A stretch of 63,997 nucleotides of DNA, filler included, from Rhabdomonas costata (taxonomy: Eukaryota): the NCBI GenBank assembly GCA_019059605.1. It is 40 parts of 40 records of this genome, joined end to end, with 100 filler letters (N's around TTAATTAATTAA, not from the genome) between each part and the next. Parts side by side here need not be neighbours in the genome. Positions count along the whole stretch, not along the records: positions 57,689 to 59,195 come from JAHMHO010014367.1; 39 more parts are not named here. One strand, written 5' to 3'. Position numbers and translations under genes: made by a program. Shown piece by piece: positions 1,603 through 59,195 of this stretch (position 1 is its first letter; every line of letters begins with the position of its first letter). Below the pieces are notes generated by a model. That model was not told the origin of the DNA and did no database searches. It saw nothing but the letters and a program-made list of their open reading frames with translations.

Positions 1603-3530
1603 TGAGGCAGAAGCGGCTCACGGGGTTGAAGAAGAGATGGAGGACGTGTACTCGGGAGCTCAAGTGGAGCAGGAAACTTCAGTTGACGTCTCCCACGAAG
1701 CTGAAGCTGAAGCTGAAGCTGCGAATAGCGCCAGGCAGCGCGTTGGAGAGAATTGCACGAGCAGATAGATAAACGTTTGAGGAGACCCACAGCTAAAAAA
1801 ACCCAGATAATGGATCGTTTGAGGCGATGGAAGCTGACAAGAAAGAGTGAAGCACGGTTTCGGTATGAGGGAGGAGCGAAGGATAATCAGCGCAAAGCGG
1901 TATTCATGCGAGGTTGTTTCCTTTGGCACCCTCCCAAAAACGTTTATGCCCCCAGCAATGGGGCCGCCGCTTCGACGGAGAGTTAGGTTTGCCCTTCTAC
2001 TATTGGAATTGAACAACCCCACTCCCCAGCCCCAATGTTGTTTTGCAAAAACGCAAACCCGACATTGATAAGTAGGAGCGGCGGCCAAAATTTTTGGTTG
2101 TTCAAAGTATTTTGGAAAACGTTGTCTTGGCGACGGCTTCCTTAAACGGGGGAATATGAGCAGGAAGAGGAGTCTTGCGCATAACTAAAACACCCAATCC
2201 ATAACACACTTCAAAGGGTGTGTGTTTTTACACCCCTAATAAAGCACTCTACTGCGGTATGGGGTGTCGTCTTTGGATGCAAAATTGCACTTTTTCTTTC
2301 CTGTGTGTTGTGTTGTGTTTTGTGGCTTTTCGCAAGGCTAAAAAGTATTATGGGTTAAAGCGGCTGGGTTTGACGCGGCCGAAGGCCGTTCAGCGGCAGA
2401 AACATTGGTTTTGTCATGTTTTTGTACAGTGTTTTTGCCCGGTACGAGCGGCAAGATGCCCAACATTTTGCCCGTTATTGTCGGCAGGACCGCATATTAA
2501 TACGTGTGGTCGATGTAAACCAGAACACGCGAAGGGGAGTCGTGCTGGGCAACGGCCTTCTCCTCGCCTCACATTTCAGGCGCTCGAAATTGTCAATTTT
2601 TTCCAAATTCCTGTTGAAGCGCCCAAAATGGCCATTTTAACCGTTTTTGTTTCACTTTCTTGCCAAACAACGCGCGTAGGATACTGCGTTCGGTAAGGTG
2701 CTGGGAATCCACCTTCCAATAATGGAATTGAACAACTTCCCATTTTCGAACGTTGGTCGGCAAAACGGTCTTCGGAAAACGTTGTTACCCCCGACCTGTG
2801 TCCGTTTTCCTTCCTTGTCTTCACTCTGTCTCGTTCCTCTCTAAATTATTCCCATTTTGGGCATCGACATGCTTCTGTGCATTATATTTTTCGCTTTCTG
2901 CTGCGGAACACGGGCACCAGGCGACCGGGTTGGTATTTGGGCGCATTCTGACACACGTTCATATTTGGGCGCAGTCTGACACACGTTCCGCGCGGGCACG
3001 GGAATCCGCGGTGTAAAGGCGAAAAAGCAGAGGATAATTATAAAATTAATATCATCAGGTTTGCTGCAGCGTTTTATTGAAGAAGTCGGAATGCGCCCAA
3101 ACACCNNNNNNNNNNNNNNNNNNNNNNNNNNNNNNNNNNNNNNNNNNNNTTAATTAATTAANNNNNNNNNNNNNNNNNNNNNNNNNNNNNNNNNNNNNNN
3201 NNNNNGTGGTTTTTGCAGCAAATAGCGTGTGCTGACTATGTGAAGCAGCTGTTGTCCGGGTATGTGCCTTGACCACCCAAGGCGAACTCGGGATGCGTTT
3301 TGACTGACTTGATACGGACAGCAACTGTGCAATTCAGAGGCGAAATTCGGCCTAATTTGTGTCGCCCCCTCACCCAGCAAACCCTACTCGTGAATAGCCA
3401 ATGCTATTCACGGGGGTTGAATGGAAGGACGGGGAGTGGGGAAAGTGAAACAGACTATGCCCACAAACTTCTGCCAATATTTCTTTTCACCCAAAAGTAT
3501 ATTTCCCCTTTTTTTTCTCTCCGAATGGAC

Positions 3531-5881: not shown

Positions 5882-7499
5882 CAACCCGAGAGATTCAGAA
5901 GCACTTTGACGACTTTGGCCTTTTCGCGGAGTTTGGTTAGCACACGCACACCACTCAACTCAACCACCTGCTTTCGGCTCTTCTAACTCAGCGGCTATTG
6001 CTCTTCAAAAATTCCACCATACCTTCTCTCCCATTGTTCATTGGTAAAGTAGTTTGGTGGTGGCTAGTATGTTACCTTCCATTTATTGGGTTTGGCCTCC
6101 ATGCAGCTCTTACACCACAGAATGGCGCGTGTAATAAAGAAGTGAATATTGTGGATGCCAGCGAACACACAAACAATAACAGCCGGCAGACGCACATCAA
6201 TCATGTGCCAAAAGCGGTCACTCACAGGAAGTGAGCGGTAAATCTGGCTCTGCAGACGACAAAAACGGTACACACTCTGCCATGGTCCTTTTCGCGTGGA
6301 AAAAACAAACANNNNNNNNNNNNNNNNNNNNNNNNNNNNNNNNNNNNNNNNNNNNTTAATTAATTAANNNNNNNNNNNNNNNNNNNNNNNNNNNNNNNNN
6401 NNNNNNNNNNNTTGTTTTTGTACTCACGTCCGTTACCTAATGTTGCTGATCAGCTACCTGGAAGACAACCAGGCCAGCAGCTTTCCGCCAACGGATGTGA
6501 GTACAAAAACGAAGTGTGAAAGCCGCACAAAAACGCTGGGCAGACAGTGGAGCAGTTGTGATAAACAGAAGTCGAAAAGTTCCTTAGGTGAAAGAAAGTC
6601 CTCGTTTCCCATGTTCTTTTACACTACCTACTGTAGAGTGCTTTCGGCTGGTATCTCTCTGCTTTCTCCACTCTTGGCTACCTTAGCGCTGCGGGATGAG
6701 GAATTTTCACCCTTATCTAATTCCTCCTAGGCTTGAAGTTTTTGAAAGGTGATCTCTGTATCCGTGTCCTCGTGTTTTTTTTCAGCCCGTGGGCTCAAGA
6801 CGCACAAGATGAGTAAGGCGACACACGGTTTCCTTCTTTTTGGTGCTGTTGGGTCACCAAAATGCACTTAACTCCAATACAAGGAACGAACCTACGCCAT
6901 TTTTTTTGCCAAAACTGCGTCTGTGCAATATATCCCATTAGGATTTGTTTTTGTTGGAGTACCAAGTTTGTGGCAAAAGCGTTATCCTGGTGTACGCCTG
7001 TTCGAACTTCGTTCCAGCCTCTTATGAACTGTATCTCTAATTGTGAATCTCAGCATACCACCAAAAATCCCGATCCACCTCGCTAACCACTCTGGACGGG
7101 TTGTCAAACTCGGGTCTGAATAGGTAATGTTTCGGACAGATAAGGAGGTGCACGTGATACAAGGCAAAGTAAACATTGTCTACCTCTGGAACTCTGTACG
7201 CCCACGCCAGCTCCATCGGCAACTTCATTGTCCAACGCGGCTACTTCCCCTTCATATGGAACTCTGCAAGAGAAACGAACTTCTCGAGTACGCCATTGCC
7301 TGTGGTTACTGAAGTTCCTCCAGCACCAAAACAGGAGCGAGTTTCAGTTCGCACACCGATAGTTTAACATACTCCCTGTGTCAACCGCTTCTATCCACGT
7401 CACGGATGGATCATGTGGAACTCTGGATTCAACAACCTCACTCGAATATTCTATTAACTTTATATGGCATAACTCCACCTTAGGACCTACCGAATTAGT

Positions 7500-7880
7500 A
7501 GTCAGAACGGAATGTCCAGCACGAACAAGGTCCAGAAGAGTCAAAAAGGGGTCAGAAGCATCAGAGAGGTTGCTTCTCCACTGGAACTCTTTGAGATTCT
7601 CCCACAAGAGGTGGTCCTGTGCCCCGCCGCGGGCATTTAGCCAGGTCTTCAGGCGTCCCCAGCAACCACCAATGGTGTTGGTGTGAACCCGGAAGGTCAG
7701 TCATCCAAACACCTCATCTTTAGCATACTGCTCGTGAACATGGTCCACGTAGCTGTGCTTGTAACTGTCCCCAAACCGATGCCGATACCTGTCATCGCTC
7801 TTGCTTCAAGGACCCTCTCCTCTTGTCTAGATCCATTCCCTCAACAATGTCCAGGTTTCTCTGGATGTGTAACGAATCTC
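7500..7880 (-). mobile_element. Degenerate Merlin (IS1595/ISXO2-like) DDE transposase, C-terminal half
   Basis: One frame reads SRETWTLLREWI*TRGEGP*SKSDDRYRHRFGDSYKHSYVDH...*LTFRVHTNTIGGCWGRLKTWLNARGGAQDHLLWENLKEFQWRSN...DPFLTLLDLVR, matching the Merlin pattern Y.H..VNH...VHTNTIE..W..LK...G...L.EF.WR...D.F..LL; stops at 7827-7829, 7806-7808, 7701-7703; catalytic Glu replaced by Gly. Confidence 0.8.
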
Positions 7881-8141
7881 ACACGACTTCTAAGTCGTTT
7901 GCGCTCACAAAACANNNNNNNNNNNNNNNNNNNNNNNNNNNNNNNNNNNNNNNNNNNNTTAATTAATTAANNNNNNNNNNNNNNNNNNNNNNNNNNNNNN
8001 NNNNNNNNNNNNNNGGTTGGTTGGTCGAACGACTAGAATGTTCCGCGATTTGGTAAAGATGGTGAGAAAGTAAACAAAGGGTCTCCGTCCAAGACGGCTT
8101 TTCAAAATCGCGGAACATTCTAGTCGTTCGACCCACCTACT

Positions 8142-8324: not shown

Positions 8325-9099
8325 TGAGTCCAATCCGCCCCCACACACACCACACAAGACAAAAGCAAAAAAAAAAACTGCGTTGTGCTTTTGTATCACG
8401 TTTCTCACAAAATGCAAACTGCCCTGATGATTGCTTCAAACAAACCACTCTGTTCTTTTCTGTGATTGATTGAAAGACAGAACTTGTCGTGAGGGAGTTA
8501 ATTCAACCGAACGTGGAGTTGTATTTTTGGTTGTTGGGGGGGGGGGCGGTTGTTGCGTAAAGTGCTTAACGTTTGTAAATCGTGGGATGAGGTGCGAAGG
8601 GCATCCTGGCGACGTTGAATTAGAAAAAGTGCGGAGATAAGAACCATTGAAATCTACACCCGCCTCAGCCGCCCGCTCCGCGCCGCGTGCTGGTTTCCAC
8701 GGCCCGCAGTTGCGCGGCGGCTGGCCTGCGCCCCGAAGTTAATCGAATTCCTTTTGGTAATAACTAAAGCCCAGCAAGGAATGAGTTCCTATCACCAATA
8801 CTGACCAACGTGAAACATAACGGAATTGTCAAAGATAGATTTTTCATAGACCGCCCCATGACCGTAAAAAGCCCCGCCCCGTGGCCGCGAAAAGGACGGA
8901 CATCTTTGATGCTGAAGAGTGGATGAGGACGTGTTGGGTGTTTGCTCGCAGCCAGCGGACATCAGTTGTTTGTTGTACTGAGGGGGTGCCTAACAGCAAT
9001 CGTGCACCGCCGACGTATCCCATCCGCCAAACAGGGGACCAGTGGCTGAGCGGGCAAAAAAAAAACGTTTGCAGGAAATAGGATGCTTTGACCGCGCAG

Positions 9100-11647: not shown

Positions 11648-12955
11648 CTGCAGAATCCCTCCCCCCAGATTTCTATCTGTGAGCGCGGACAGTCCCGCGC
11701 AGACGCGGCGGCTCGACCAAAAGGCTTTCCATTCACTGGGCTGCTCTGCCAATTCAATTCCCTCTGAACTTCATCGCTTTTTGTGCCCAAATCACACACA
11801 AGTATGTGATTAAACAGTGAGCGGTGCGCGGAGCAGTGGCCTCAGTGCATTTACTAATTGGCTCCTCCAATTGGCAAACCAGTTCAAGGTTGTTGTTGTA
11901 GGAACAGACGCTGGATTACGAACACGATTTACTTGTGCCCAGGTGCTCAACGGGCCCTTCACCGACCACTTCGGCACACAACAAGTCGGCCGTTGACGCT
12001 GAAGGACCCTTCACTGCATTATCCGCAGAAACAAGGGACTTCCGCCGTAACCTTCAAGTTGCATGGCAAGCAAAGATGGCGATGACTGGGAAGAAAATGA
12101 TACAAGGATAAAGAGATACCGCAGAATGAAAGTGGAGAGAATATACTGCTCCCCTTAACCAAAAAAGCCGCATACCCTCTGGGACGATGATACACCCAAG
12201 GGACGGATCAAGGAAACGAACTAAACATGCGAGGGCCCGAGCACACAGCAAGGAAAAGGAAAACTACAGCACAGCAGGGAAAAGAGATGCACAGGGAACA
12301 AATCACAAAACTATCTGCGGAAGTGGGCAGAAGAAGCTGCCGCAGGCGGGGGGCGGCATTTCTTAGAGCAATCAAGGCCATTCCACCCTTTTCTTTCCTC
12401 CGGGATAAACTGGACGCAATTTTACGCATTTTACGTAGAACTTCAAACGCTCCAACATTCTTACGATTTAGAGTAAAACTCATTTTGCTCGAAGAAAAAA
12501 AATGCAGATTCCCTCTCTGCAGGCTGAGCCATTGAGTGAATCCAACAAGGAAACACGAGCAAGAAGGTAGTACACGGGCGGTACTTGTGGTACAGTTGAG
12601 ACGTGGGGATACAATTAAGCGGCACCAATGATGGCATCGTAAACTTCTGCACACACACAGAGGAGCATTCCACAGCTGCAGCAGTGACACTTCACACGAT
12701 ATCCCCTCTTCCCAAACGTCTTTNNNNNNNNNNNNNNNNNNNNNNNNNNNNNNNNNNNNNNNNNNNNTTAATTAATTAANNNNNNNNNNNNNNNNNNNNN
12801 NNNNNNNNNNNNNNNNNNNNNNNGGTGGTGGGGGTGTACTCACTGCATCCAAAGAACCGGAAGAGAGCACACGGTGGAAGCCCGCGCTGGATAAAAGAGG
12901 AATACAGGAATCATCGCCCCCCCCACCCCTGCCGCTGTTCCCTGTGAGTGCACAC

Positions 12956-25158: not shown

Positions 25159-27762
25159 GTCTCCATCGTTTCCAGGGATGATGCCGTGAAGGTTATTATT
25201 TCCTCTGCATCTGCCCTCTCTATTACTTTCGATGGACGATTCGCAATTCTTAACATCGGCCTTTCTTATATTTTACCCACTATCTGATACAAGGCTTGCT
25301 CTTTTCGGTAGGTAATTAAACGAAAGTTATCCATCTGTAGGTCATTACCCTTACTTCGCACAAAGGGCGATTAGAGTTCAGCGTGGGTGTTGTCGGATTG
25401 CAGGTGAAAAATGAGGCATTCTATGTGGATTTCCATCTTGAAGTACACACCAAGAGAGCGATATGGAATCCACACTGACACCGACACCGACTGGAGACAC
25501 AACATGCACCATACAACAACTACCAACCTGTGACACCGTGACCCAAAACANNNNNNNNNNNNNNNNNNNNNNNNNNNNNNNNNNNNNNNNNNNNTTAATT
25601 AATTAANNNNNNNNNNNNNNNNNNNNNNNNNNNNNNNNNNNNNNNNNNNNGTTGTTGTGTTGACATCTATTTAGTGTTTCCTCTCATCACCGCTTTTCGC
25701 TCGTTGAAATTATTGTTTGCCGCAAAAATGGGGAGTGTGTTGAGCTCTTCTACCCCCTCCTTGTTGGCACTGGGGACTGTCATTCTGATCGCACAGCGCC
25801 ACATCGGCTGTGGAGTTCTGCCCCTGCCCTCTGTCGGTCTCATGGCAATGACCCTCGCCCTGTTCACGATCATTCTTTTGCTCGTCCGCAACACCCTCCT
25901 TACGGTGACCCCATCACTTCTTTCTTATATTTTGTACTCTCTGCACTTTGCAATGCTCTGGGTCCGAGGTGTTGTAGTTGTGGGGGGAGGGGGTGTTAAA
26001 CGGTCGTAACGTTCAGCGGCTGCTGTGCTTGAAACATGAGATACGCTTTCGCTTTGGGACCATCGAGGCTGCGGAAATTGATCAGTCTTTGCAGGGGTCC
26101 ACTGCCGCTAGTTGTGTCGCCTTTAGCCAGTCGGCATGTCGGTATCGTTGGGTCGTCGTTAACAACTCTAGGTCATGTTAACCCCATTCCCCATCCACGA
26201 AATACACCACCGCGATGTCATCGATTTTCAACCCCCTCCTTTTGATGTGGACCGCGCGCTTCTCTCCGTCCTTTCGGCTGTGGCTGTGCAGACTACCTAG
26301 CACCGATGCGAGCCGGTCTGCGGTTGAATTTTGCTCCACTTGGTCAGCGTGTAGTTTTGTGTGCTGTGCTCGTGAATTCTGAGTTCCCCACATTCTCGTT
26401 CCCGACATACGCGAAGTCTAAACGCGAAAATCTGATGGCTGCATGCACCCCCCCCGTGGTGCAATACCCCGAGCTCGCTTCCGTTGTTGGGTGGGAAACC
26501 AAGCACAGGACAGGGCAATGCCCGCCTGCCACCTTACTAGCCTGCCAGCATGTTTTTTGTTGGTAGTGAGTGATTAGCGAGTGGGTGACTGTGGTGTGGT
26601 GACCATGGCTGCGTGTCAGATTCTGTTCATGCCGTCGCTGCTCATCTCGCGGTTCATGGCCTCGCTGACCCAGGCCCGAGAGAAGGCCCTGGAGCACCCC
26701 GGGTGGCGCCCTGTGGTTATGCCCACGGCGGACGGTGCCGCGGCGGTGGACCCCGCCCGGTGGCAGATATGGTGCAACTCCAATGGCATGTGCTACGAGG
26801 TATACGCACCATACACTAATTCACTGAATCACTCACCAGCAGCAGCTCCAGACACCAGTGCCCGTTTACCCATCCAATGAAAAAAGTTATCAGGGTCGTT
26901 TCCGCGAGAGAAGGCCCCAGCCCTCCCCCCTCTCTAAAAAAAGGGAGTGCGGAGCCTGAGAGACCCGAGCATCAATGGTCCACCACTTTTTCAAAAAGCT
27001 TCCAGCATTGTGGCTCAGGTGGCTCCCTAGCTGTTGCAATTCCCTCAAAATTGCTGCTGCCTCTGACACCCCCCGCGTTACTTCCGGGGGTTCCTGCCCT
27101 CTGGGTGACTCCCGCTCTGGCCTGGGGTTTGGTCCTTGGTCCTCCCAACACCCNNNNNNNNNNNNNNNNNNNNNNNNNNNNNNNNNNNNNNNNNNNNTTA
27201 ATTAATTAANNNNNNNNNNNNNNNNNNNNNNNNNNNNNNNNNNNNNNNNNNNNGGGGGTGGTTGTTACACCTTCATTAACTCATCATGGGGTCCTCAAGT
27301 CTTATCGTACCCCACCTGGCGACTACACTCTGATCACACCTGGTACCACCTGATGCCTAGATGAGCCCAAAAATGGTATGGATGCCACTGCAGTCGCCAG
27401 GTGGGGTACGATAAGACTTGAGGACCCCATGATGAGTTAATGAAGGTGTAACAACCACCACACTTCGCATGGTGATTTCGACACTTGCTACGTAAATGCT
27501 ACCTTCCGGTGGCCCTTGATAACCTACTGCGCGGTGACGCAAAAAGGTGCTCCGTAAAAACGGGTCACGTTCGTTCATCTGGCTTTTCTCGACTGTTCCT
27601 TCATCTATAAAAAATCATTTCTTTTTTTTACAACAGATCAGGAACGGAAATACAAGTGATTGAGTCTGACACTCAGCGACATTCAGCTGGTCAGGGGTCA
27701 TGATGAAATGTGGCGAGGGCTGCTGGTTAGGATGTCGTCACATAGTCTTCTTCCTTGATCAG

Positions 27763-28648: not shown

Positions 28649-30904
28649 AGTTGTTTAGGTTGTGTCTTTAGTCCTTTCCACACACACACACACAAAGCAC
28701 ACGACTGCCTGCTGACTGCTGACGCCCGCCCGCCGCTCGAAAGCGATTCTTTTTTNNNNNNNNNNNNNNNNNNNNNNNNNNNNNNNNNNNNNNNNNNNNT
28801 TAATTAATTAANNNNNNNNNNNNNNNNNNNNNNNNNNNNNNNNNNNNNNNNNNNNGAGGAGGGGAGATGGCGGGCGTGGTGGCCACAACGGTGGCCATCG
28901 CAGACTCACACGTCTCGTCACGGGATGAGGCACACACAGGAGGAGATAAGAATCAGGGGTGTGAGGTAGGATGGGTGGATGGGAGGCACAACCCCAGCTC
29001 CACCCGGAAAAAAGGAGCCTGTCCAAGGGAAAATTGAACCTTGAACGAAAGGGTGCCCCCACAAGGTTGGGTTAAAACTTGCTCGAGTTACTATTTACGT
29101 ATTGCTAAATTTCGAGCTGTTGAATAATTTACGATTTTTTTTGCTTTGTTTCTTGTCTTCGCGCGCGCTTGCGTTTGTGTGGAAACTTGAAAACAATCGC
29201 ACACAAAAACTTCAGAAAGGTAGTGAAGGTTTTAGACAAGGGGGCGGGACATCGACAAGGTTACACGCTTGGTGCGTTTCCACTTCCAGCACTTTCGCGC
29301 CAAAGACATCACGCTCCCCAAAGGCACATAAAGTCAATCCTTGATTGAGGACTACAGACCCGTCAATTAATGATTGGACCGAAAACAGATGAAGAAAAAG
29401 GACCAAGAATATTCAACACCTTTACCCCGTAAAAACCCCGATTAGTCTGATTTTAAGCTAAACCGTAGAACGTAAGCCGAAATACTCAACAGTCGTTTGG
29501 GTTCAAATGCTTGTTTTCAGATGGATAAACAACCAGATTCCGAACCTCAAACTGTACTAGTTTATCGAGACCGCAAACATGAAAAATAAGGATATGTTTA
29601 TCGCGTGAGGTGACTTGCATGGAAAGGTGCCTGCCGAATTCTGGCAAGAAATACAATCGTCACTGTTAGTACCCTGTTGGTAGGCTTGAAAGTTGCTTTT
29701 CTCCCTTATCTTGTACACCGTGTCACTTGTCTCGTATTTTTTGTCGTCTCATTTAATAAATTCTTGAACCGAAAGCGACAGGATGGGATCGTACTTTAAC
29801 TGTTCAAAACATTCTTTCTTCCCACACACAACAGAAAATAGGAGGGACACGGCGGCAACACCAAAAAAGTACAGGTGCCAAGTCACGAAGTGGTAGCATG
29901 GCGATTCTGTCCAAAGGAGATGCTTAGGCGCTGAAGGCAAAGTCTTCCGTTGGAGCGGGCCAAGGCAGCAGCACGTCTCACTTTCTTCGGGGGCCTAGGG
30001 CTTCATGAAAGTCTCAGTGAACTTGTGCTGCCGTGCTGGGCGGGCTGTGCGCAGAACATGGAAGCAAGTGGTCTACAGCCTCGGTGCTGCAAGTCCATTG
30101 CTACTTCGAAACCGTTTGGGAAACCACCTACCACACGACCCATACAAAAGGTGTGAGACGGAAGAGGGCGAATGCTCTCGGCAGCCCCCAGCCACACAGC
30201 AGCGGCGCAAGCGAGCAATCAAGAGCCCAGATCCGGAAGTGCTACTAGATGAAGGACTACTAGCGTTTTCTGAAGCTGAACGTCGTGCCCCACATATTAT
30301 GCTGGTGAGTGCTGAACTGCCACAGTGATGCATCCACCAAAGCCGTACCCCAAAAACNNNNNNNNNNNNNNNNNNNNNNNNNNNNNNNNNNNNNNNNNNN
30401 NTTAATTAATTAANNNNNNNNNNNNNNNNNNNNNNNNNNNNNNNNNNNNNNNNNNNNACAGAGCCGCCTAGGGGTACGGGTGGGTTCCAGGCTACGGGTG
30501 AAAGGACCGGCCACGCAGTGTTTCGGGGGCCCACTTAACATAAAAACCCCGGGCCTCGGCTTTGCCAAATCTCGGTTCGGGTTTGTTTTCATATCTTTTT
30601 TGTGGTGTTTACTCTTATGTCTCATTCAAGCACGCATGCAAGAACAAAAGCGACCGTCATCAGTGATTTTTAGCTGCACAGGTGAAACCCTGCACTGGTT
30701 GCAAAGATTACTTAGTGTTCTGGCCCTCCAGGTCCAGGTCCAGGTTTTCACCGTCACCTTTGCGCGAGGCCCATGCCATGCAGATGTGATTGCTTTCCCC
30801 AGTTTGGGATTAGATCTCTTGCGCAATCTTTATTTAGGACGTCAGCGACCTAGCGCTGGCGGCGCTGCGACAGCCCCTGCACCGCACGTGCAGCCCGTGC
30901 ACAG

Positions 30905-34792: not shown

Positions 34793-36002
34793 GTTTGACC
34801 CACTGCCCCCCCGCCCGGTTTTGTTGAAGTTGGTCTGCCCACATGTTCCTCCTTGAATGCGTTTGCTGCCAAAAGAGGGGCGTTAGGTGGTGGTTGTGTT
34901 GGTGGGGTCGTGCGCAGGCGCCTGGGGCCTTCGCCGGTCTATTTCCGGGGCGGGGGGCTTCACGATACAACGCCGTTATACGGTAGAACCGTGTGATATC
35001 GTATAACGGGGTTATACCGTATACGTTATGCGGTCATGGGGCGGTATATGAAAATCGGTTTTTGGCCATTACGTTATCTTTCACGTTGCTCAGTATTGTT
35101 GGTGGGGACTCATTCCTTGCCGTCGAATCTGACTTTTGCAGCTTGGTTTGAATTCCCAACCNNNNNNNNNNNNNNNNNNNNNNNNNNNNNNNNNNNNNNN
35201 NNNNNTTAATTAATTAANNNNNNNNNNNNNNNNNNNNNNNNNNNNNNNNNNNNNNNNNNNNGTTTTTGTTTCCTTATGTTTGTTTGCAGCAGAGCACACG
35301 TCAGGGCAAGGATGGCTCACACCAAGCTGTCACCAAGTTCGCAGTGTGTAAGTGACTAAGTGGTGCCATGACCAACGAAGATCTCATCACAGTTGCTCAG
35401 CAAGGTGCAAGAGGCGCACACCGAGAGCAAACAAACATAAGGAAACTAAAAACTTAAAAGCAACAAAAATTTACAGAAAGGGCAGACGCTGCAAAATAGC
35501 GGATACAAGCGAGAAAGTTACAAGCAAGTTACAAGCAGAAGAGAAGCAGCCTCGCAGATTTTGGCATTGGCGTATTTTCAAAATGAGAGCGGAGCAAAGA
35601 ACCTTGCGTTGGGGAGGAGAATGAATGCGCAACCTTTGATGAAGTGAAACTGCGATGAAGAAATCGCCCCACGCCACTTTCCTACCCCCCATAAACACGC
35701 TGATGCTGTGGTTGCCGCACTTTCAACAGTGTGCGAGCTTAGGAGACAATTTTTCTTTTTTTGTGTGTGTGGTGTTGAACGACTTTTTACGACCACAATA
35801 ACGTTTGCTTCGCAAACCATGGTGTCACCACGGAAGAAGGCAGGACCGGATACTTGTCCAGTGACCCAGGGGCTGGGTCACCTTGCCGCAAGGGATTGCA
35901 TGTATGCTTCCAGGTTGCTCGTGTGCGCATGGGTCAACGTACGCACACATGCACATCTCCCTCCGCTCTCTCTGTCATTTCTCTCCTCGCGGTGCATTTT
36001 AG

Positions 36003-36625
36003 GTGGTTTTGCGATCGATGACCCCACCACGGCGATGCTGCGGGAGAAGCTGCAGGCCCGGCTGCGGGTGGCCAGCGAGGAACGGGACTTCTACAAGGCC
36101 GAGCTGCAGCGCAGGCCCCTCACCGTGCATAACGCAGAGTGCAGCACGGTACGTGCTCTTTTCTCTCTGCTTCTGTGGGCCTGAAAAAGGTTCCACAAAA
36201 CCGATAACGTGCTGGGGTGTTCCTGGGAGTGAGGGGCCTGCCTCGGCAAAGGTGGGATGGCGCCGGGTACCTGGATCTTGTAGCGACGGCCTGCAATACA
36301 TCCTCCGCTGCATGGGGCAAAAAGCCTCGCAAATGGGATGCCATAGAGCCGCAAAGGGGCACCACAACCGGAAAGGTGAGGAAATCCTGACCGCCCCGCT
36401 GCGTTTCGGGAGGTATGCAAAGGACCCCAGGCCTGCTTCGGCTTAGCCCTCATCTGGTACACGAGAGTGTTTGCCCTCCGTCCTGTCAGGAGTAATGTCG
36501 GGCGACCTGGGAAGACGGAAAACAGGGACTGAGCAGCCTCCCTTTTTAACGGCTGCATGTTCATTGCAGATGACTACGCCCACGCTGGGCCGTGCTGAGG
36601 CGGAGAGCATCTTGGCACAGATTGA
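36003..36625 (+). CDS. Two probable exons (36003-36148, ~36570-36625) of an unidentified coiled-coil protein
   Basis: tttAG and ttgcAG acceptors, GTACGT and GTGGCT donors; MLREKLQARLRVASEERDFYKAELQRR / MTTPTLGRAEAESILAQIE. Confidence 0.45.
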
Positions 36626-44773: not shown

Positions 44774-46217
44774 NNNNNNNNNNNNNNNNNNNNNNNNNNN
44801 NNNNNNNNNNNNNNNNNTTAATTAATTAANNNNNNNNNNNNNNNNNNNNNNNNNNNNNNNNNNNNNNNNNNNNGTTGGTGGTGTGAATGCCTTTACGAAG
44901 AGGCCTCTTCGTAAAGGCATTCACATCACCAATTGAGCTCCTTGATGGTTTTTAAGGTCTCCAAAGGTCAGTGAGCTGCCCACTGTCTGTGTCTGACTTC
45001 TTCACTTCAAAAGGAAAAAGAAGCACTCTGCAGGCACTGTCAGTGGAGCTCTGGGCTGCCCTTTTCTTTACTTTTTCTTTTGCTTTGCTTTTAGGTGCGG
45101 ACAAGGCTGCGGAGATGCTGGCAAGTACCCCAGAGTGGAAGGTTCCTTCCCTTTCCCTCACTCCTCACTCCTGTGCTGCATCCCATCACTGAAGATCCTC
45201 CTTTCCCCTTTATCAGCCGGATCATAATTCAGAGCAGAACGAGCTTCATCCAAGTGTAAAAAATAGGCAATGCATCACAGTAAGAGGGGCATCAAGTGGA
45301 GAAGTTAAAGCAGAGACACAATAATGAAGCGCGGCCAGCCATAAAGATGCAGGGGAAAAAAAGAAGGGAAGAAAGTGTTGTTGCTGGAATGCAGTGGGGT
45401 TGGGTAAAACCAGGTAAACAGTGCTAAGCCGAAGCAGGCCTGGGGTCTTTTGTATTTACAGCGGGCCTCCCGAAACGCTGCGTGGCCGGTCCTTGGGGTC
45501 AGAGCTTCCTGAATGAGGAGGCAACAAATAACTTAAAAAGTCAGCTGGGGTTTGGGGACGGGGGGCATCAAGCGGAGGGAAAGCGGTGTCTGCATCTCAC
45601 CAATATCAGCTCCTGCTGAAAGCTCCTGCTGCTTCAGTCTAAAAGTGAGAATTGTGCTTAATGGCGAAAAAAAAGGTCTCACATTCTTTCTCGTACCCTG
45701 CTTTTTCTTCTCCAATCCTCCATGTCGCCCCAAAGATATACTTTTCCTGTTTATTTTCTGTTTCATGTTAATTGGTCCCTGTTTTTGTTGAGCAGCTGCG
45801 TCTTGCTACCTCAGCAATGCTTGTGCGGTGAACACAAGCGTCATTAATTATAAAATTGAAAATTGATTAAGAATTCCTCGTCAATCCGTGGTTGGTTCAG
45901 TTGTCTCAAGGCTTCCACTTCTCTTCTTCCCTAAGCCTTTCCCTTTCCCTTGTCTTTGAAAGCAGTCTACATATGTTTGCGGTTTGCCCACATGTGTACA
46001 TGGATGAGCCTGAACAGCTGCACCCCGTTTGAATGGGTTCTCAGTGATTTTTCATGTGTTCTTCAACAAGGATAAAATGTAAAATGAAAATAAACGGAAC
46101 GCCTGTTTCCTGAATTGCCTTGTCGCGTCCTGTCTTTGAACCATTAATGTCACGCTTCTCACTTTTAATGTGTTTAATCTGAAGCGGGGCATGTCAAACC
46201 TTCTGACACCACCAAAG

Positions 46218-49300: not shown

Positions 49301-51905
49301 GTAAAGTCAAGTTTTTTATTGGACAGTTGCGATTATTTTTTTTGTGTTTGTATATGTTTGTGCGAACAGGGGACACACCCACCCATGAAAAGAATGAAAA
49401 AAGAAAAGCTGCCCGTTTATGAAAGCAGGTTGCACGTAACGTTAGAGTTGACAGATGCAAATACTGGGAAAACATGAGAGAATGCAAAAGACAAGCATGT
49501 CTGAAAAGGAATGGAGCAACTGATATGGCCTGTTTCACACCAAACGCGAGAATTTTCGACATCCGATCAAGAAACACACNNNNNNNNNNNNNNNNNNNNN
49601 NNNNNNNNNNNNNNNNNNNNNNNTTAATTAATTAANNNNNNNNNNNNNNNNNNNNNNNNNNNNNNNNNNNNNNNNNNNNGTGGTGGGCACTTACACACAA
49701 ACATGCACAAGGGAACGTCGTTTACTGACTTGCGGGGGGTACAAAGGGGTGCTCACTTTTTCTGTGGTCGACTTACTTCTTCGGGGTGGTGCACGAACTT
49801 CCCGCGGTGAGACCCAGGCAGGGCTTCGTGGACAAGGCCTTGAAGCTGGGCGCTTCCTCCGCAGGGGTCACCCGGGGTGGGGTGCGGGGGCGACCCCCGG
49901 AGACCAGGGCCAGGTGGGTCGTTGCCAAGGGAACCGCCATGGCGTCTCTCACGCCGAAGTGGGGGTAACCCGGCTCCTCTCGGCTGTGCCATTCGACAAG
50001 AGGGAAGTGATAGGAGAAAAGAGCAAGCACATGTCATTGGTTTGTGTTGCCCACGTTGCGCATAGGAAGGGGATTGCATTCCCCAACTGGTCTGCGGTGA
50101 GCAGGGTTGTCTTCAACAACAGTGTTCTTCGCATGCGCGAGATACAACGCATTTGTGGAAAGCAAATGGGAGAAAAAACGGGTCTATAAAAAAGCCATGT
50201 TCAAGTTTTCTCTTCGCGCCCAAAAGAGAGGGAGCAGGAACGAGCCGATGAATGGGAAGGGGCGGGGGTGGCGCATCTTTTTGCCTTGCCTTTGTTCTGC
50301 AACCCACATTTGCCCCTGTGACATCTCTCTCTGTCAAAACGATACTTTCGGGAAAAGTTAACGACGACCGACTGCAGAAAAGTCGCAAGGCAATTCAGGA
50401 TGAACACGGGATCAACCGGTGATGTTTTCCTCTTATAAACGTCGCTGGTCACAGAGATGGGGGAAAAAGAAACGTGAAAGTGAAGGATACCCATGGAAAA
50501 AGAACGCTGGTGGAAATGTCTCTTCCCACACCCACAAAACAGACACGACAACCACCTCCATTGCTGCCAAAACCTCAATGCTCAAAAGAAGGATGAGAGC
50601 TGCCCACCACACCCGTCTTTAGAAGGTGAGGTCGCGGCAAGGACTGCTTCCTTGGGACAGACTCCTGCAAAAGACAGCAAAAGAAAAGAACCAGGCTTCG
50701 AGGTGATATCGCAGCTGTCTGCTCTGTTTCCTAATAATGGGTGAAGAACGGGCGAAACCGAAGAAGGCCTCGCGTCCTTTACAAAAGCAAAAGGTCTCAG
50801 AAATGCTGCAGGGCCAGTTCTTGACAGAAAGGAAAGCAACGCCAAAACCAGGGTGTGCGCCCAATCGTTGCAGCTTTCTTTCTAAATGTGAAAAAAAACG
50901 CAATTTGAGCAATTTTCCACACCGGGCGGGAGATGGCGAGTCCCTGGAGGCGGGAACGCTGGCCGCCTGCTGATCGAAACCTGGAGCGCTTGGGGATGCA
51001 CTCGGGGAGGGGCCGCGGCGAAAGGGAGGCGAGTAGTGCGAGGTGGTATTACCCAGCAGGCTCATGACGGAAAGACAAACACTAAAGCGACGTCTGCTTC
51101 AAAACGCGGCAAATCAGCAGGCGTCCGAAGCTTTTGGCTTCTGCCTTCCCGTCATGAGCCTGCTGGGTAATACCACCACCCNNNNNNNNNNNNNNNNNNN
51201 NNNNNNNNNNNNNNNNNNNNNNNNNTTAATTAATTAANNNNNNNNNNNNNNNNNNNNNNNNNNNNNNNNNNNNNNNNNNNNCTCGGCCTTCCTCTTGGTT
51301 ACCCGTTAAGGTATATTGCTCTGGGCATGGTTTTTGGTCGTCCTATATACTGTGCTGTGTTTTGCTCAGCCTGCTTTGGCTTGTCATTGCACAATCACCA
51401 ACAAACAAGCACAACAGTTCGGAAGTCAAAAGGAGCAGGCTGGCTTCTGCTTTGCTCGTCTTTGGGCCCATGGCATCATCTGTTCCCTTGGCTCACCTTC
51501 TGCCCGCTGCTTTCCGTAGGGAAACAGGGTTGCAGGGTTGGTTGCAATGTACTCATGTGTAAGGGAAGGAAGGATCGCCTTTTTTATTGCCAGTACTAGC
51601 CTTCATGCTAGTGACCATGCTCGTGTTTTCTCTCCTCTTTTTCCCCCACCACCACCTATTTTTTTTGCCAGTTTCTGGCTTTGTGTCGCCCGAAGGGGTG
51701 GCGCAGTGTGGTCGCCACTCTGAACCCCTTTGAGGCTGTTCAAGTGGAGGTGGGGTGCACAGATTGTGCATCGTTTTTCTTTGCACAGCAGTCTTTGTGT
51801 GAAGTTAAATCTGACGTCGGGTCGGTTTACTTGATGTGTGTGTTGGACGCGAATCTGGCACGGAGATATTAATGTTCTCTGACTGTGCTTTTTCTTCATT
51901 TCTTC

Positions 51906-52171
51906 AGTTGGTCAGTGTGGAACGAAGCTTCCCCTCAGCTTGCGTGTTTCTTTTGGGTTTTCTGTGCAAGGAGGTCCTTCATAGTTCTCATTTGTGGGCC
52001 TGAATTCCAAGGCGAAGAGATTTGTTGGAAAACGCTGAAGTTGGTCAGTGTGGAACGAAGCTTCCCCTCAGCTTGCGTGTTTCTTTTGGGTTTTCTGTGC
52101 AAGGAGGTCCTTCATAGTTCTCATTCGTGGGCCTGAATTCCCTGGCGAAGAGATTTGTTGGAAAACGCTGA
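51906..52171. repeat. Tandem direct duplication, 2 x 133 bp
   Basis: 51906-52038 and 52039-52171 differ at only 3 positions. Confidence 0.95.
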
Positions 52172-53140
52172 GGTGTCTGCAACAAGAACACCGGGAAGGC
52201 CTTTTCACCCGCCCAGGGCACAGACCAAGACGCTGTGCCTTCCAGGTTGACAGTATTATGGGACAGCCCCCGGCCTCCCCCTTCAGTGTCGGATTCAACC
52301 TCAGTGGGATTCGGTTGTTTCAAAGTTCAAAATTTACAGTTATGTTTAGTCGAGCCGCCCCGCCAGCAATCGCTACAAATCGGGGAAGCAGGTGGGTTCC
52401 GGCCTCAGGGTGCAAGGTGCAGAACAAACAGACACAATGATGCCTTAAGTCAAAGAAGGACCGGCGACGCAGCGCTTTGGGACGACCAGTGTGTGCAAAA
52501 AGACCCGGGCCTTCTTTGCTTCGCGCTCTGCAGCTTGTTGGAGAACTCAAAAAGCAAGATTTTGAGCAATCTATAACACACACTTAACGCCAGCTTTTCC
52601 CTTCCAAACCTCCTGCAACCCCATTCTGGCCGAAGAGTCGGTTTCGGTCCCCCATCCACACACACTCACACACACACAAGAACTATACAAAATAAGGTCA
52701 CCCCTTTCCCCCGCCCGACCTCCTCACTGAAACTTACTCACGTGCACCGCCTCGAGGCGGTAGCTTTTCAAAGACCCAAAACCNNNNNNNNNNNNNNNNN
52801 NNNNNNNNNNNNNNNNNNNNNNNNNNNTTAATTAATTAANNNNNNNNNNNNNNNNNNNNNNNNNNNNNNNNNNNNNNNNNNNNGGTGTTGGTGAAGGACA
52901 AGCCGGTATGGACTGGAAAAGCAGTTGGGCTAGTCGCAAAGCTGAGGACGTCGGGAGAAAAGTGGGACTCGGCCTGCATCAAGTGCGTGCTTCTCGGTTC
53001 CAGGCAGGCCAGATATAATCCGCGTTTGCTTTTGGGTGTGCAATTGGCCTTTCTATTGCGTAGAACACGAGAATAAAGTGAGTTTGTGTATGTGTGTGTG
53101 TGTGCGCGCGCGTGGGTGCATCAGGGGTGGGGAGGTGTAC

Positions 53141-57688: not shown

Positions 57689-57885
57689 TCTGGTGGTCAG
57701 GGGTTCGTTAGGTATCGGTCTGTCGGCGTAGCGGGTTCGTGGGTCAGGGTTCGTGGGTCAGGGTTCGTGAGGGTATGGGTTCGTGTGGGTATGGGTTCGT
57801 GTGGGTATCGGTGTCAGGTGTGAGGGTATCGGTGTCAGGGGTCAGGTGTGAGGGTATCGGTGTCAGGTGTCAGGGTATCGGTGGT
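57689..57885. repeat. G/T-rich degenerate tandem repeats (GGGTTCGT, GGGTATCGGTGTCAGG units)
   Basis: Repeated GGGTTCGTGGGTCA, GGGTATGGGTTCGTGT and GGGTATCGGTGTCAGG seen directly. Confidence 0.85.
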
Positions 57886-59195
57886 GCGTGTACTTCGGCT
57901 GTTCTTTCCCATTTCGCTAGTTGTGTAGGCATTCCTGGTTGTCATTGGGTTTCTTTGGTGCACTGTCTTTCGTCGCGCGTGATGGAGGTGATTGGATAGG
58001 AGACCTAGGGGGACTGTGAGACCATGCAGAAGGCACTACCCGCTTTATAGCTACGGCCTAGGATAACGACACCAACACGAGTACACACGACAAGCTGAGA
58101 TCCTACGTAGGAAGTGCGCATGTAACGTCAGTACTACGTAGAAGGCCGCTGGGAACAGTAGAGCTAAGGCTATGCATGAACGCCACAGGTTGGTCAAGTG
58201 CATGTGCTGCGGTGATGCTGAGACACAGAGGGTGAGCCGTTGACGTAAACCACAGGTTGGCACACGTCACATGGCCCTCTGTCACCAGTAGACACTACAC
58301 CACTATCTATGTGTGTGGATGCCAACGTAGGAGCTTAGTTATCCTATTAGTAGCTGTACACGTACGTAGGTTGTAGGGTAGGAGTAGCGTTGTAGGGTTG
58401 AGGCGTAGGAGTAACATCCAACCTTCCACCTGTAGCGATACCCCTATCTATGGTTGGTCGTGGCAGTGTTGGTGCTTAGCGTAGTCTCAGCATACAACCC
58501 CTGTAGTGGTATGGGCGTAACACACCCTGTAATCCCACGCCTTGGGTTCATGTTGATACGATGCTTGTGCTGATGCTGTTACGCCTCCTGTTGGTGGTAA
58601 CGTCATGGCTGAGGGACAACCTGGTAATGGTGATGCCTACCGGTGTGAAGCCCTCAAGGTACAACATCCGAAGTGGAGGTCGCCGAGACCGACATGAACG
58701 ATGCGAACACCCTGAGGCGCAGCAACACTCACAGCATCAACCCACTGCTACGGTTAACGCTCAGCCTGATGTGGTGTTCATGGCTGTCAGGGAAGGGCGT
58801 AGGCTGTCATGGTGTCCCGTAATGCAAAGGGCCATCGTACACCTCCAACCTTCACCACACCCTAACCCTTAGCGTAAAGGCATAAGGTGTAAAGGCGTAA
58901 CCTGACAGCATCGGCAATCCTCACCCTTCCACCCACAGCGAAGGTCAAAGGTGATGCGTAAGGCAGAAGTTAACCCTGATGCGTAATGCTGATGGTGTAG
59001 TAGATGCTAAGCGTAAACCCAAGGCTAAGGTGTAACGTGAAGGCGTAGGATAAGCGTAACCCTCCCTCAGGGTATTCCTGCGTGGCTTCGCCCGGTCGGA
59101 GTGACACGTACCGGCTTATGCCGGGGAGTGGAACGAAGAGACAGGTATAGGCATGATGCTATCCCCATGCCTTACTCACTGCGTTCGTAAGTCAT
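57886..59195. other. Compositionally atypical contig body ending in conserved blocks shared with 18369-18584; candidate mitochondrial mini-chromosome piece
   Basis: Near absence of long A/T runs, abundant CGTA/GTAG; shared blocks at 59075-59095, 59097-59109 and 59177-59186. Confidence 0.4.

Follow-up and report, generated by a model that had tools for sequence, protein, structure and literature searches.

The two contigs considered here lie in a window of 63,997 nt (the whole stretch of DNA that was analyzed, filler included) from the Rhabdomonas costata assembly GCA_019059605.1. The window is composed of 40 contigs of 1499-1508 nt each, joined by runs of N and TTAATTAATTAA linkers, and is a length-sorted slice of a fragmented assembly. 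Since all 40 contigs measure ~1.5 kb, the similar length of the two is uninformative. Positions are given along the whole window, contig A extending from 17637 to 19139 and contig B from 57689 to 59195. The following parts were distinguished in them:

17637-18204: left part of contig A, ordinary host-type DNA, with four A/T runs of 6 nt and z values of -1.4 to +0.5 under the B-trained 5-mer model
17637-17657 and 17678-17698: terminal fold-back of 21 nt at the start of contig A
18205-19139, plus strand: right part of contig A, 935 nt of B-like non-coding DNA, with k-mer windows at z 3.4-4.6
18750-19139, plus strand: A/C-rich tract of contig A (A 0.39, C 0.37), not a tandem array (no TRF row)
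57689-57900, minus strand: C/A-rich tract of contig B (G/T-rich on the plus strand), formed by degenerate tandem repeats with a period of 14 to 28 nt
57901-59074, minus strand: body of contig B, non-coding, rich in TpA, and containing a large number of degenerate direct repeats

Contig A is a mosaic of host-type and B-like DNA. Positions 17637-18236 scored like ordinary contigs (z -1.4 to +0.5), while all seven 300-nt windows from 18237 on reached z 3.4-4.6, above the maximum of the other 38 contigs (-0.092, against a score of -0.07 for window 18337). The change point was placed at 18204 under each of three thresholds, and the split statistic of A was larger than that of every one of the 38 other contigs. 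Both contigs had been described, in an earlier reading made from the sequence only, as lacking A/T homopolymers; this does not hold for A, which has five runs of at least 6 nt, four of them to the left of 18204. B has none, as is likewise the case for four of the other 38 contigs, and it contains no A/T run of at least 5 nt. Direct repeats are numerous in B (23 families), and G+C content is 47% and 54% in the two contigs.

The quality of the assembly bears on how this junction is read. Exact terminal fold-backs (arms of at least 12 nt starting at most 5 nt from a contig end) were found in 6 of the 40 contigs, A among them, against ~0.01 expected by chance in a rough estimate:

1603-3105: contig with exact terminal arms
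6412-7914: contig with exact terminal arms
17637-19139: contig A, exact terminal arms
22446-23948: contig with exact terminal arms
49680-51181: contig with exact terminal arms
27254-27460: exact arms of 68 nt, the longest observed, at the start of contig 27254

These structures look like the signature of amplification or assembly chimeras, and their presence in 6 of 40 contigs marks the library as chimera-prone and probably amplified, so that the 18204 junction in A could be an artefact. The stretch 27254-27553 was considered as a third member of the pair, being B-like under a combined model; it was discarded, as it contains the 68-nt-arm terminal fold-back and none of the blocks described below. 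As a separate observation, the 9-mer TTCGTAAGT has its only exact copies in the window at 17640-17648, 17687-17695 (minus strand) and 59184-59192, within a few bases of a terminus both at the start of A (inside the fold-back) and at the end of B. Judging from this placement, the two contigs may break at the same repeated word.

The similarity in word usage between the two contigs was reciprocal. With the shared blocks and a second shared 13-mer masked, models of 5-mers and 6-mers trained on B ranked A first of 39 contigs (z 3.5 and 4.4, respectively), and those trained on A ranked B first (z 3.8 and 5.1). The hexamer GCGTAR was found, counting both strands, 8 times in A and 13 times in B, against 15 times in total in the other 38 contigs (0.39 per contig), which represents a ~20- to 30-fold enrichment in 18205-19139 and 57689-59195. 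Of the copies in contig B, 12 are on the plus strand, and the body (57901-59074) contains 11 of these. Neither an extended flanking consensus nor a regular spacing of GCGTAR was detected, and its orientation relative to the blocks is opposite in A and B. The TpA odds ratio was 1.21 in B vs. 0.34-0.78 elsewhere.

Strand-biased tracts were a further trait in common. Over 200 nt, the tract of A is 79% A+C and that of B 78% G+T, and they stand on the same side of the blocks in matching orientation; an amino/keto skew of 70% was reached in 3 of the 40 contigs, the third one only just, strong tracts being confined to A and B. The tracts could not be aligned to each other (273 of 500 shuffles scored as well). 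Of the A/C-rich, strand-biased repeat tract that had been attributed to both contigs, the skew was thus recovered in both, while a tandem repeat was found only in B (57733-57891).

Taken by composition, contig B (57689-59195) and the right part of contig A (18205-19139) belong, as separate pieces, to a single class of non-coding DNA, rich in TpA and in GCGTAR, with a strongly A+C/G+T-skewed tract at one side and a word usage unlike that of the rest of the assembly. The earlier proposal that A and B form a family is probably right, in view of the k-mer reciprocity, the GCGTAR enrichment, the oriented skewed tracts and a collinear ATAA hairpin described below.

Word usage and a TpA level unlike those of the other 38 contigs could also be read as the mark of foreign DNA, the right part of A and all of B deriving from a co-sampled second organism or virus and contig A being a chimeric join, as the terminal fold-backs of a chimera-prone assembly would allow. 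We consider this improbable. Whether read with the standard code or with any of four stop-codon reassignments, A and B had longest open frames equal to those of shuffled sequence, and such a lack of open frames is unusual for bacterial or viral DNA. Neither contig matched the plasmid collections searched, and the block 2 and 3 patterns gave 0 matches in metagenome, prokaryote-genome and viral contigs, a weak negative since B itself was also absent there. Moreover, amplification chimeras are mostly joins between nearby parts of one molecule.

The family had been proposed on the basis of three short blocks in a common order, the positions of which, on the plus strand of A and the minus strand of B, were confirmed exactly:

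18369-18378, plus strand: block 1 in A, GAACGCAGTG, exact match
59177-59186, minus strand: block 1 in B, GAACGCAGTG, 9 nt from the contig end
18519-18531, plus strand: block 2 in A, ACGTGTCACTCCG, exact 13-mer
59097-59109, minus strand: block 2 in B, ACGTGTCACTCCG, exact 13-mer
18566-18584, plus strand: block 3 in A, CCGGGCGGAGCCACAGGAA
59075-59095, minus strand: block 3 in B, CCGGGCGAAGCCACGCAGGAA
18283-18295 in A (plus strand) and 58119-58131 in B (minus strand): second shared exact 13-mer, CTGACGTTACATG, not collinear with the blocks

The spacers differ in length, as had been noticed: blocks 1 and 2 are separated by 140 nt in A vs. 67 nt in B, and blocks 2 and 3 by 34 vs. 1 nt, which gives the whole module, from block 1 to block 3, a length of 216 nt in A and of 112 nt in B. 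The surroundings are indeed non-alignable. No match between A and B was returned by BLAST at E<1 (word size 7), blocks 2 and 3 were missed by MAFFT, and the spacers and downstream sequence behaved like shuffled sequence (alignment z 0.2-1.3 against shuffles). What A and B have in common amounts to about 50 nt in short blocks, the rest being unalignable. None of the blocks was found in the other 38 contigs of the window and no paper containing their sequences was found in the literature. Each block is single-copy within A and within B, and the blocks are therefore not part of the repeated vocabulary of these contigs. Since block 1 starts 165 nt inside the 18204 boundary of A and lies 9 nt from the end of B, the module lies close to one margin of the odd DNA in each contig. 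With the mosaic structure of A, this favors a nuclear element of insert or island type.

In order to grade the chain of blocks against chance, it was scored as an exact anchor of at least 13 nt between different contigs, to which the scores of the best local alignments within 200-nt boxes on either side were added. The A-B chain totaled 70, joint 5th of the 46 anchors in the window, most of those ranked above it being genuine dispersed repeats. A chain of at least 70 was present in 72 of 520 dinucleotide-shuffled windows (14%), and the A-B flank sum was reached in 29 of 520; three ordered blocks taken alone are therefore a chance outcome in roughly one window in 7 to 18. For the A-B pair by itself, the observed chain was reached in 5 of 21,514 shuffles, and on account of this rarity a real relationship between A and B is likely; that the module is a real conserved one is somewhat less likely.

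The counts of shared words were examined for the same pair. Anchors of at least 13 nt between A and B numbered 2, against 0.026 expected per shuffled pair, and in the number of 8-mers and of 9-mers shared, the pair of A with the minus strand of B came first among 1,560 pair-orientations. Once the block regions were removed, the 8-, 9- and 10-mers shared by A and B were within Markov expectation. Between blocks 1 and 2, both contigs contain a short hairpin with the same loop:

18479-18490, plus strand: hairpin CACC-ATAA-GGTG in A, between blocks 1 and 2
18540-18551, plus strand: near-copy CACC-ATAC-GGTG in A, grouped with the preceding hairpin in repeat family D3
59111-59124, minus strand: hairpin CCGGC-ATAA-GCCGG in B, between blocks 1 and 2

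The ATAA tetraloop is collinear in A and B, and the stems are entirely different. Sharing of an identical tetraloop hairpin was seen in 1 of 3,000 shuffled pairs and in 69 of 40,000 real unrelated segment pairs; the hairpin and the skewed tracts were examined once the pair was already singled out, which makes their p-values optimistic.

It could be argued that the blocks are coincidental, the right part of A and B merely having the same odd composition and no specific conserved module. Such an outcome would agree with the frequency of equally strong chains in shuffled windows, with the joint 5th place of the pair among the anchors and its rank of 45 among 1,560 pair-orientations by log-regime local alignment, and with block 1, which alone is at chance level; the spacers are random, the remaining words of 9-13 nt in common are dispersed and found in both orientations, and dinucleotide shuffles may be too lenient a control where word usage is specific to a class. 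The pair-level chain, the single copy of each block per contig, the collinear ATAA hairpin with its unlike stems, and the location of the blocks near an edge of odd DNA or a contig end in both contigs argue against it, and we regard coincidence as unlikely, though deserving some weight.

The genuine dispersed repeats of the window, which are alignable over 70-110 nt, differ from A and B, which are not alignable in that way. They are described here in their own right, together with other elements of the window:

30490-30570, 45410-45505 (minus strand), 36380-36460, 52445-52530 and 50735-50800 (minus strand): dispersed repeat family of ~70 nt in five contigs, with a mean column identity of 60% and BLAST E values down to 1.5e-10 between members
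35020-35130 and 8765-8875 (minus strand): shared element of ~110 nt, with 85% identity over 91 nt by BLAST (E 2e-22) and a mean column identity of 88%, overlapping a 23-nt tandem repeat at 8851-8894
51906-52171: unit of 133 nt in two tandem copies with 97% identity
43783-44768: tandem array with a period of 126 nt (42 aa), encoding TPR_12 / NPHP3-like repeats, the units being 83% alike
12772-13722, minus strand: open frame in which residues 175-252 match the dynein heavy chain AAA lid domain

Aligned over 28% of the query, this last frame shows ~50% identity to axonemal dyneins from a wide range of eukaryotes, and is therefore read as one dynein exon flanked by intron-like sequence. Together with the TPR_12 array, it marks the source as a flagellated eukaryote with introns.

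Searches for structured RNAs and regulatory signals in the pair of contigs gave little. Scans against Rfam, both at gathering and at permissive thresholds, returned nothing in B up to an E value of 5 and, in A, no more than noise; no tRNA-like elements were found in A or B, folding energies were shuffle-like (z -1.5, -0.1 and -1.4), and a scan of B for bacterial promoters and terminators yielded nothing. These results weigh on the idea that the module belongs to a promoter (a duplicated spacer promoter, for example) or to the gene of a small structured RNA, of which A and B would hold two diverged copies. Conserved short blocks, a hairpin with a conserved loop and changed stems, and inserts of variable length between the blocks are what would recommend it; given the Rfam scans, the absence of a tRNA-like element and the folding energies, we hold this idea to be quite improbable, if anything slightly more so than a foreign origin.

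The sequence-only reading had gone further and taken the two contigs as candidates for a mitochondrial minicircle or mini-chromosome family. In a scan for mitochondrial genes, 26 of the 33 code-4 frames of at least 60 aa were without a Pfam family up to an E value of 1, RHINO at E=0.16, a noise hit, being the one exception; the remaining 7 frames run into N linkers, and fragments below 60 aa and edited genes are beyond the reach of such a scan. Kinetoplast conserved sequence boxes were searched in the whole window: CSB-3 (GGGGTTGGTGTA, the motif as it appears in PMC6868439), with up to 2 mismatches, had 7 matches vs. 5.4 by chance, and CSB-1 (GGGCGTGCA), with up to 1 mismatch, had 17 vs. 16 expected, none of them in A or B in either case. 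No direct overlap between contig ends was found in A or B. With no gene fragment, CSB, coding signal, fixed spacing or long constant region detected, and a G+C content of 47% and 54%, the mitochondrial proposal was left unsupported.

Comparison with the known systems led in the same direction. The minicircles of Trypanosoma brucei, as characterized in PMC6868439, have one common region of ~120 bp with CSB-1, CSB-2 and the CSB-3 dodecamer, together with phased A-tracts. Resemblance to kinetoplast minicircles lies in the three short ordered blocks within ~100-200 nt, beside variable non-coding sequence. A and B are, however, without the CSB-3 dodecamer and CSB-1; in contrast to the single region of ~120 bp described in that source, their spacings differ two-fold and more and are unalignable; the phased A-tracts reported there are absent here, B having no A/T run of 5 nt or longer; and the copy in A is joined to host-type DNA. 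The circles of Diplonema, in the account of PMC4806707, measure 6-7 kb and have a shared non-coding part that takes up ~95% of the circle within a class, next to a gene module. The likeness in this case is that of many small molecules made of a shared part plus a unique part, but against the ~95% given there A and B share about 50 nt and are otherwise unalignable, and no gene module was detected in A or B among code-4 frames of at least 60 aa. Finally, the mitochondrial linear fragments of Euglena gracilis, according to the description in PMC4700960, are short and heterogeneous molecules that contain repeats and short stretches in common, in scrambled order, and that carry genes which can be recognized as well as scattered fragments of genes. 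The resemblance lies in the heterogeneity, the repeats and the scrambled shared stretches, whereas genes and gene fragments of the kind reported there were not found in A or B.

A broader version of the proposal was also considered, by which the right part of A and B would be small extrachromosomal non-coding molecules, mitochondrial or otherwise, the blocks with the ATAA hairpin acting as an origin of replication unrelated in sequence to kinetoplast CSBs, and the A junction having arisen either as a chimera during amplification or by the copying of organellar DNA into the nucleus. The layout of short ordered blocks next to a variable region would fit, as would the non-coding nature of the DNA (guide-RNA minicircles would be non-coding as well), its composition distinct from that of nuclear contigs, the chimera-prone assembly and the diversity that PMC4806707 and PMC8130358 report for euglenozoan mtDNAs. 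Against it stand the lack of a mitochondrial gene fragment in the 26 of 33 frames mentioned, the absence of CSB-3 and CSB-1 from A and B, block spacings that vary between the copies (140 vs. 67 nt and 34 vs. 1 nt), the lack of a shared constant region of the diplonemid kind and of contig-end overlap, the G+C content of 47-54%, and the joining of A to host-type DNA. In addition, the single-cell mtDNAs of heterotrophic euglenids described so far are, as presented in PMC8130358, multigene contigs. We therefore judge a mini-chromosome family, in any of these forms, to be very unlikely.

The location of the A copy pointed elsewhere. Presence of the blocks inside nuclear contigs had been named beforehand as a finding that would count against a mitochondrial origin, and it was observed in part: the blocks of A lie 165 nt from ~18204, with host-like DNA and A/T homopolymers to the left. 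Because the class is joined to ordinary host-type DNA in A, it is most likely nuclear, unless the junction is a product of the chimera-prone assembly. Our best explanation, which we put forward tentatively with a probability of roughly 0.45, is that A and B belong to a class of non-coding nuclear repeats or inserts that bear a conserved module in subterminal position. Counting against it, only two copies were found, with no third in the window or in the public collections searched, from which B itself is also absent.

Under this nuclear explanation, the class would be either a non-coding element of the dispersed kind or an island formed by decayed repeats. A short way in from the class edge, the module would run in the order block 1, ATAA-loop hairpin, block 2 and block 3, an order that would have been kept while the surroundings diverged beyond alignment. 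The module could consist of cis-acting sites, namely protein-binding boxes plus a hairpin, serving in the copying or insertion of the element, and such a use may be the reason why it survives near the element end.

Non-autonomous nuclear transposable elements of MITE- or Helitron-like type carry conserved motifs together with hairpins in their subterminal regions, which would be the nearest functional analogy for the module. The resemblance consists in the non-coding nature of the DNA, a short conserved module with a hairpin near one edge and a diverged interior, and in the A copy abutting ordinary host DNA, the B copy ending at the contig break. In contrast to MITE- and Helitron-like elements, no terminal inverted repeat, target-site duplication or Helitron termini were identified in A or B, where only one edge and two copies, with no body that can be aligned between them, are seen, and no transposase was seen in either contig.

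These results carry a caution for the comparison of short contigs, as three ordered short blocks between contigs of 1.5 kb appear by chance in about one window in seven, and the relationship between A and B becomes credible only through the independent tests of composition. Were the class to prove high-copy and extrachromosomal, the idea of a mini-chromosome would revive. If the nuclear reading holds instead, A and B would represent a lineage-specific non-coding repeat class bearing a small conserved module, which would not be surprising in itself and would aid the annotation of the assembly. The class, recognizable by its excess of TpA and its enrichment in GCGTAR, would merit being followed across the whole R. 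costata assembly.
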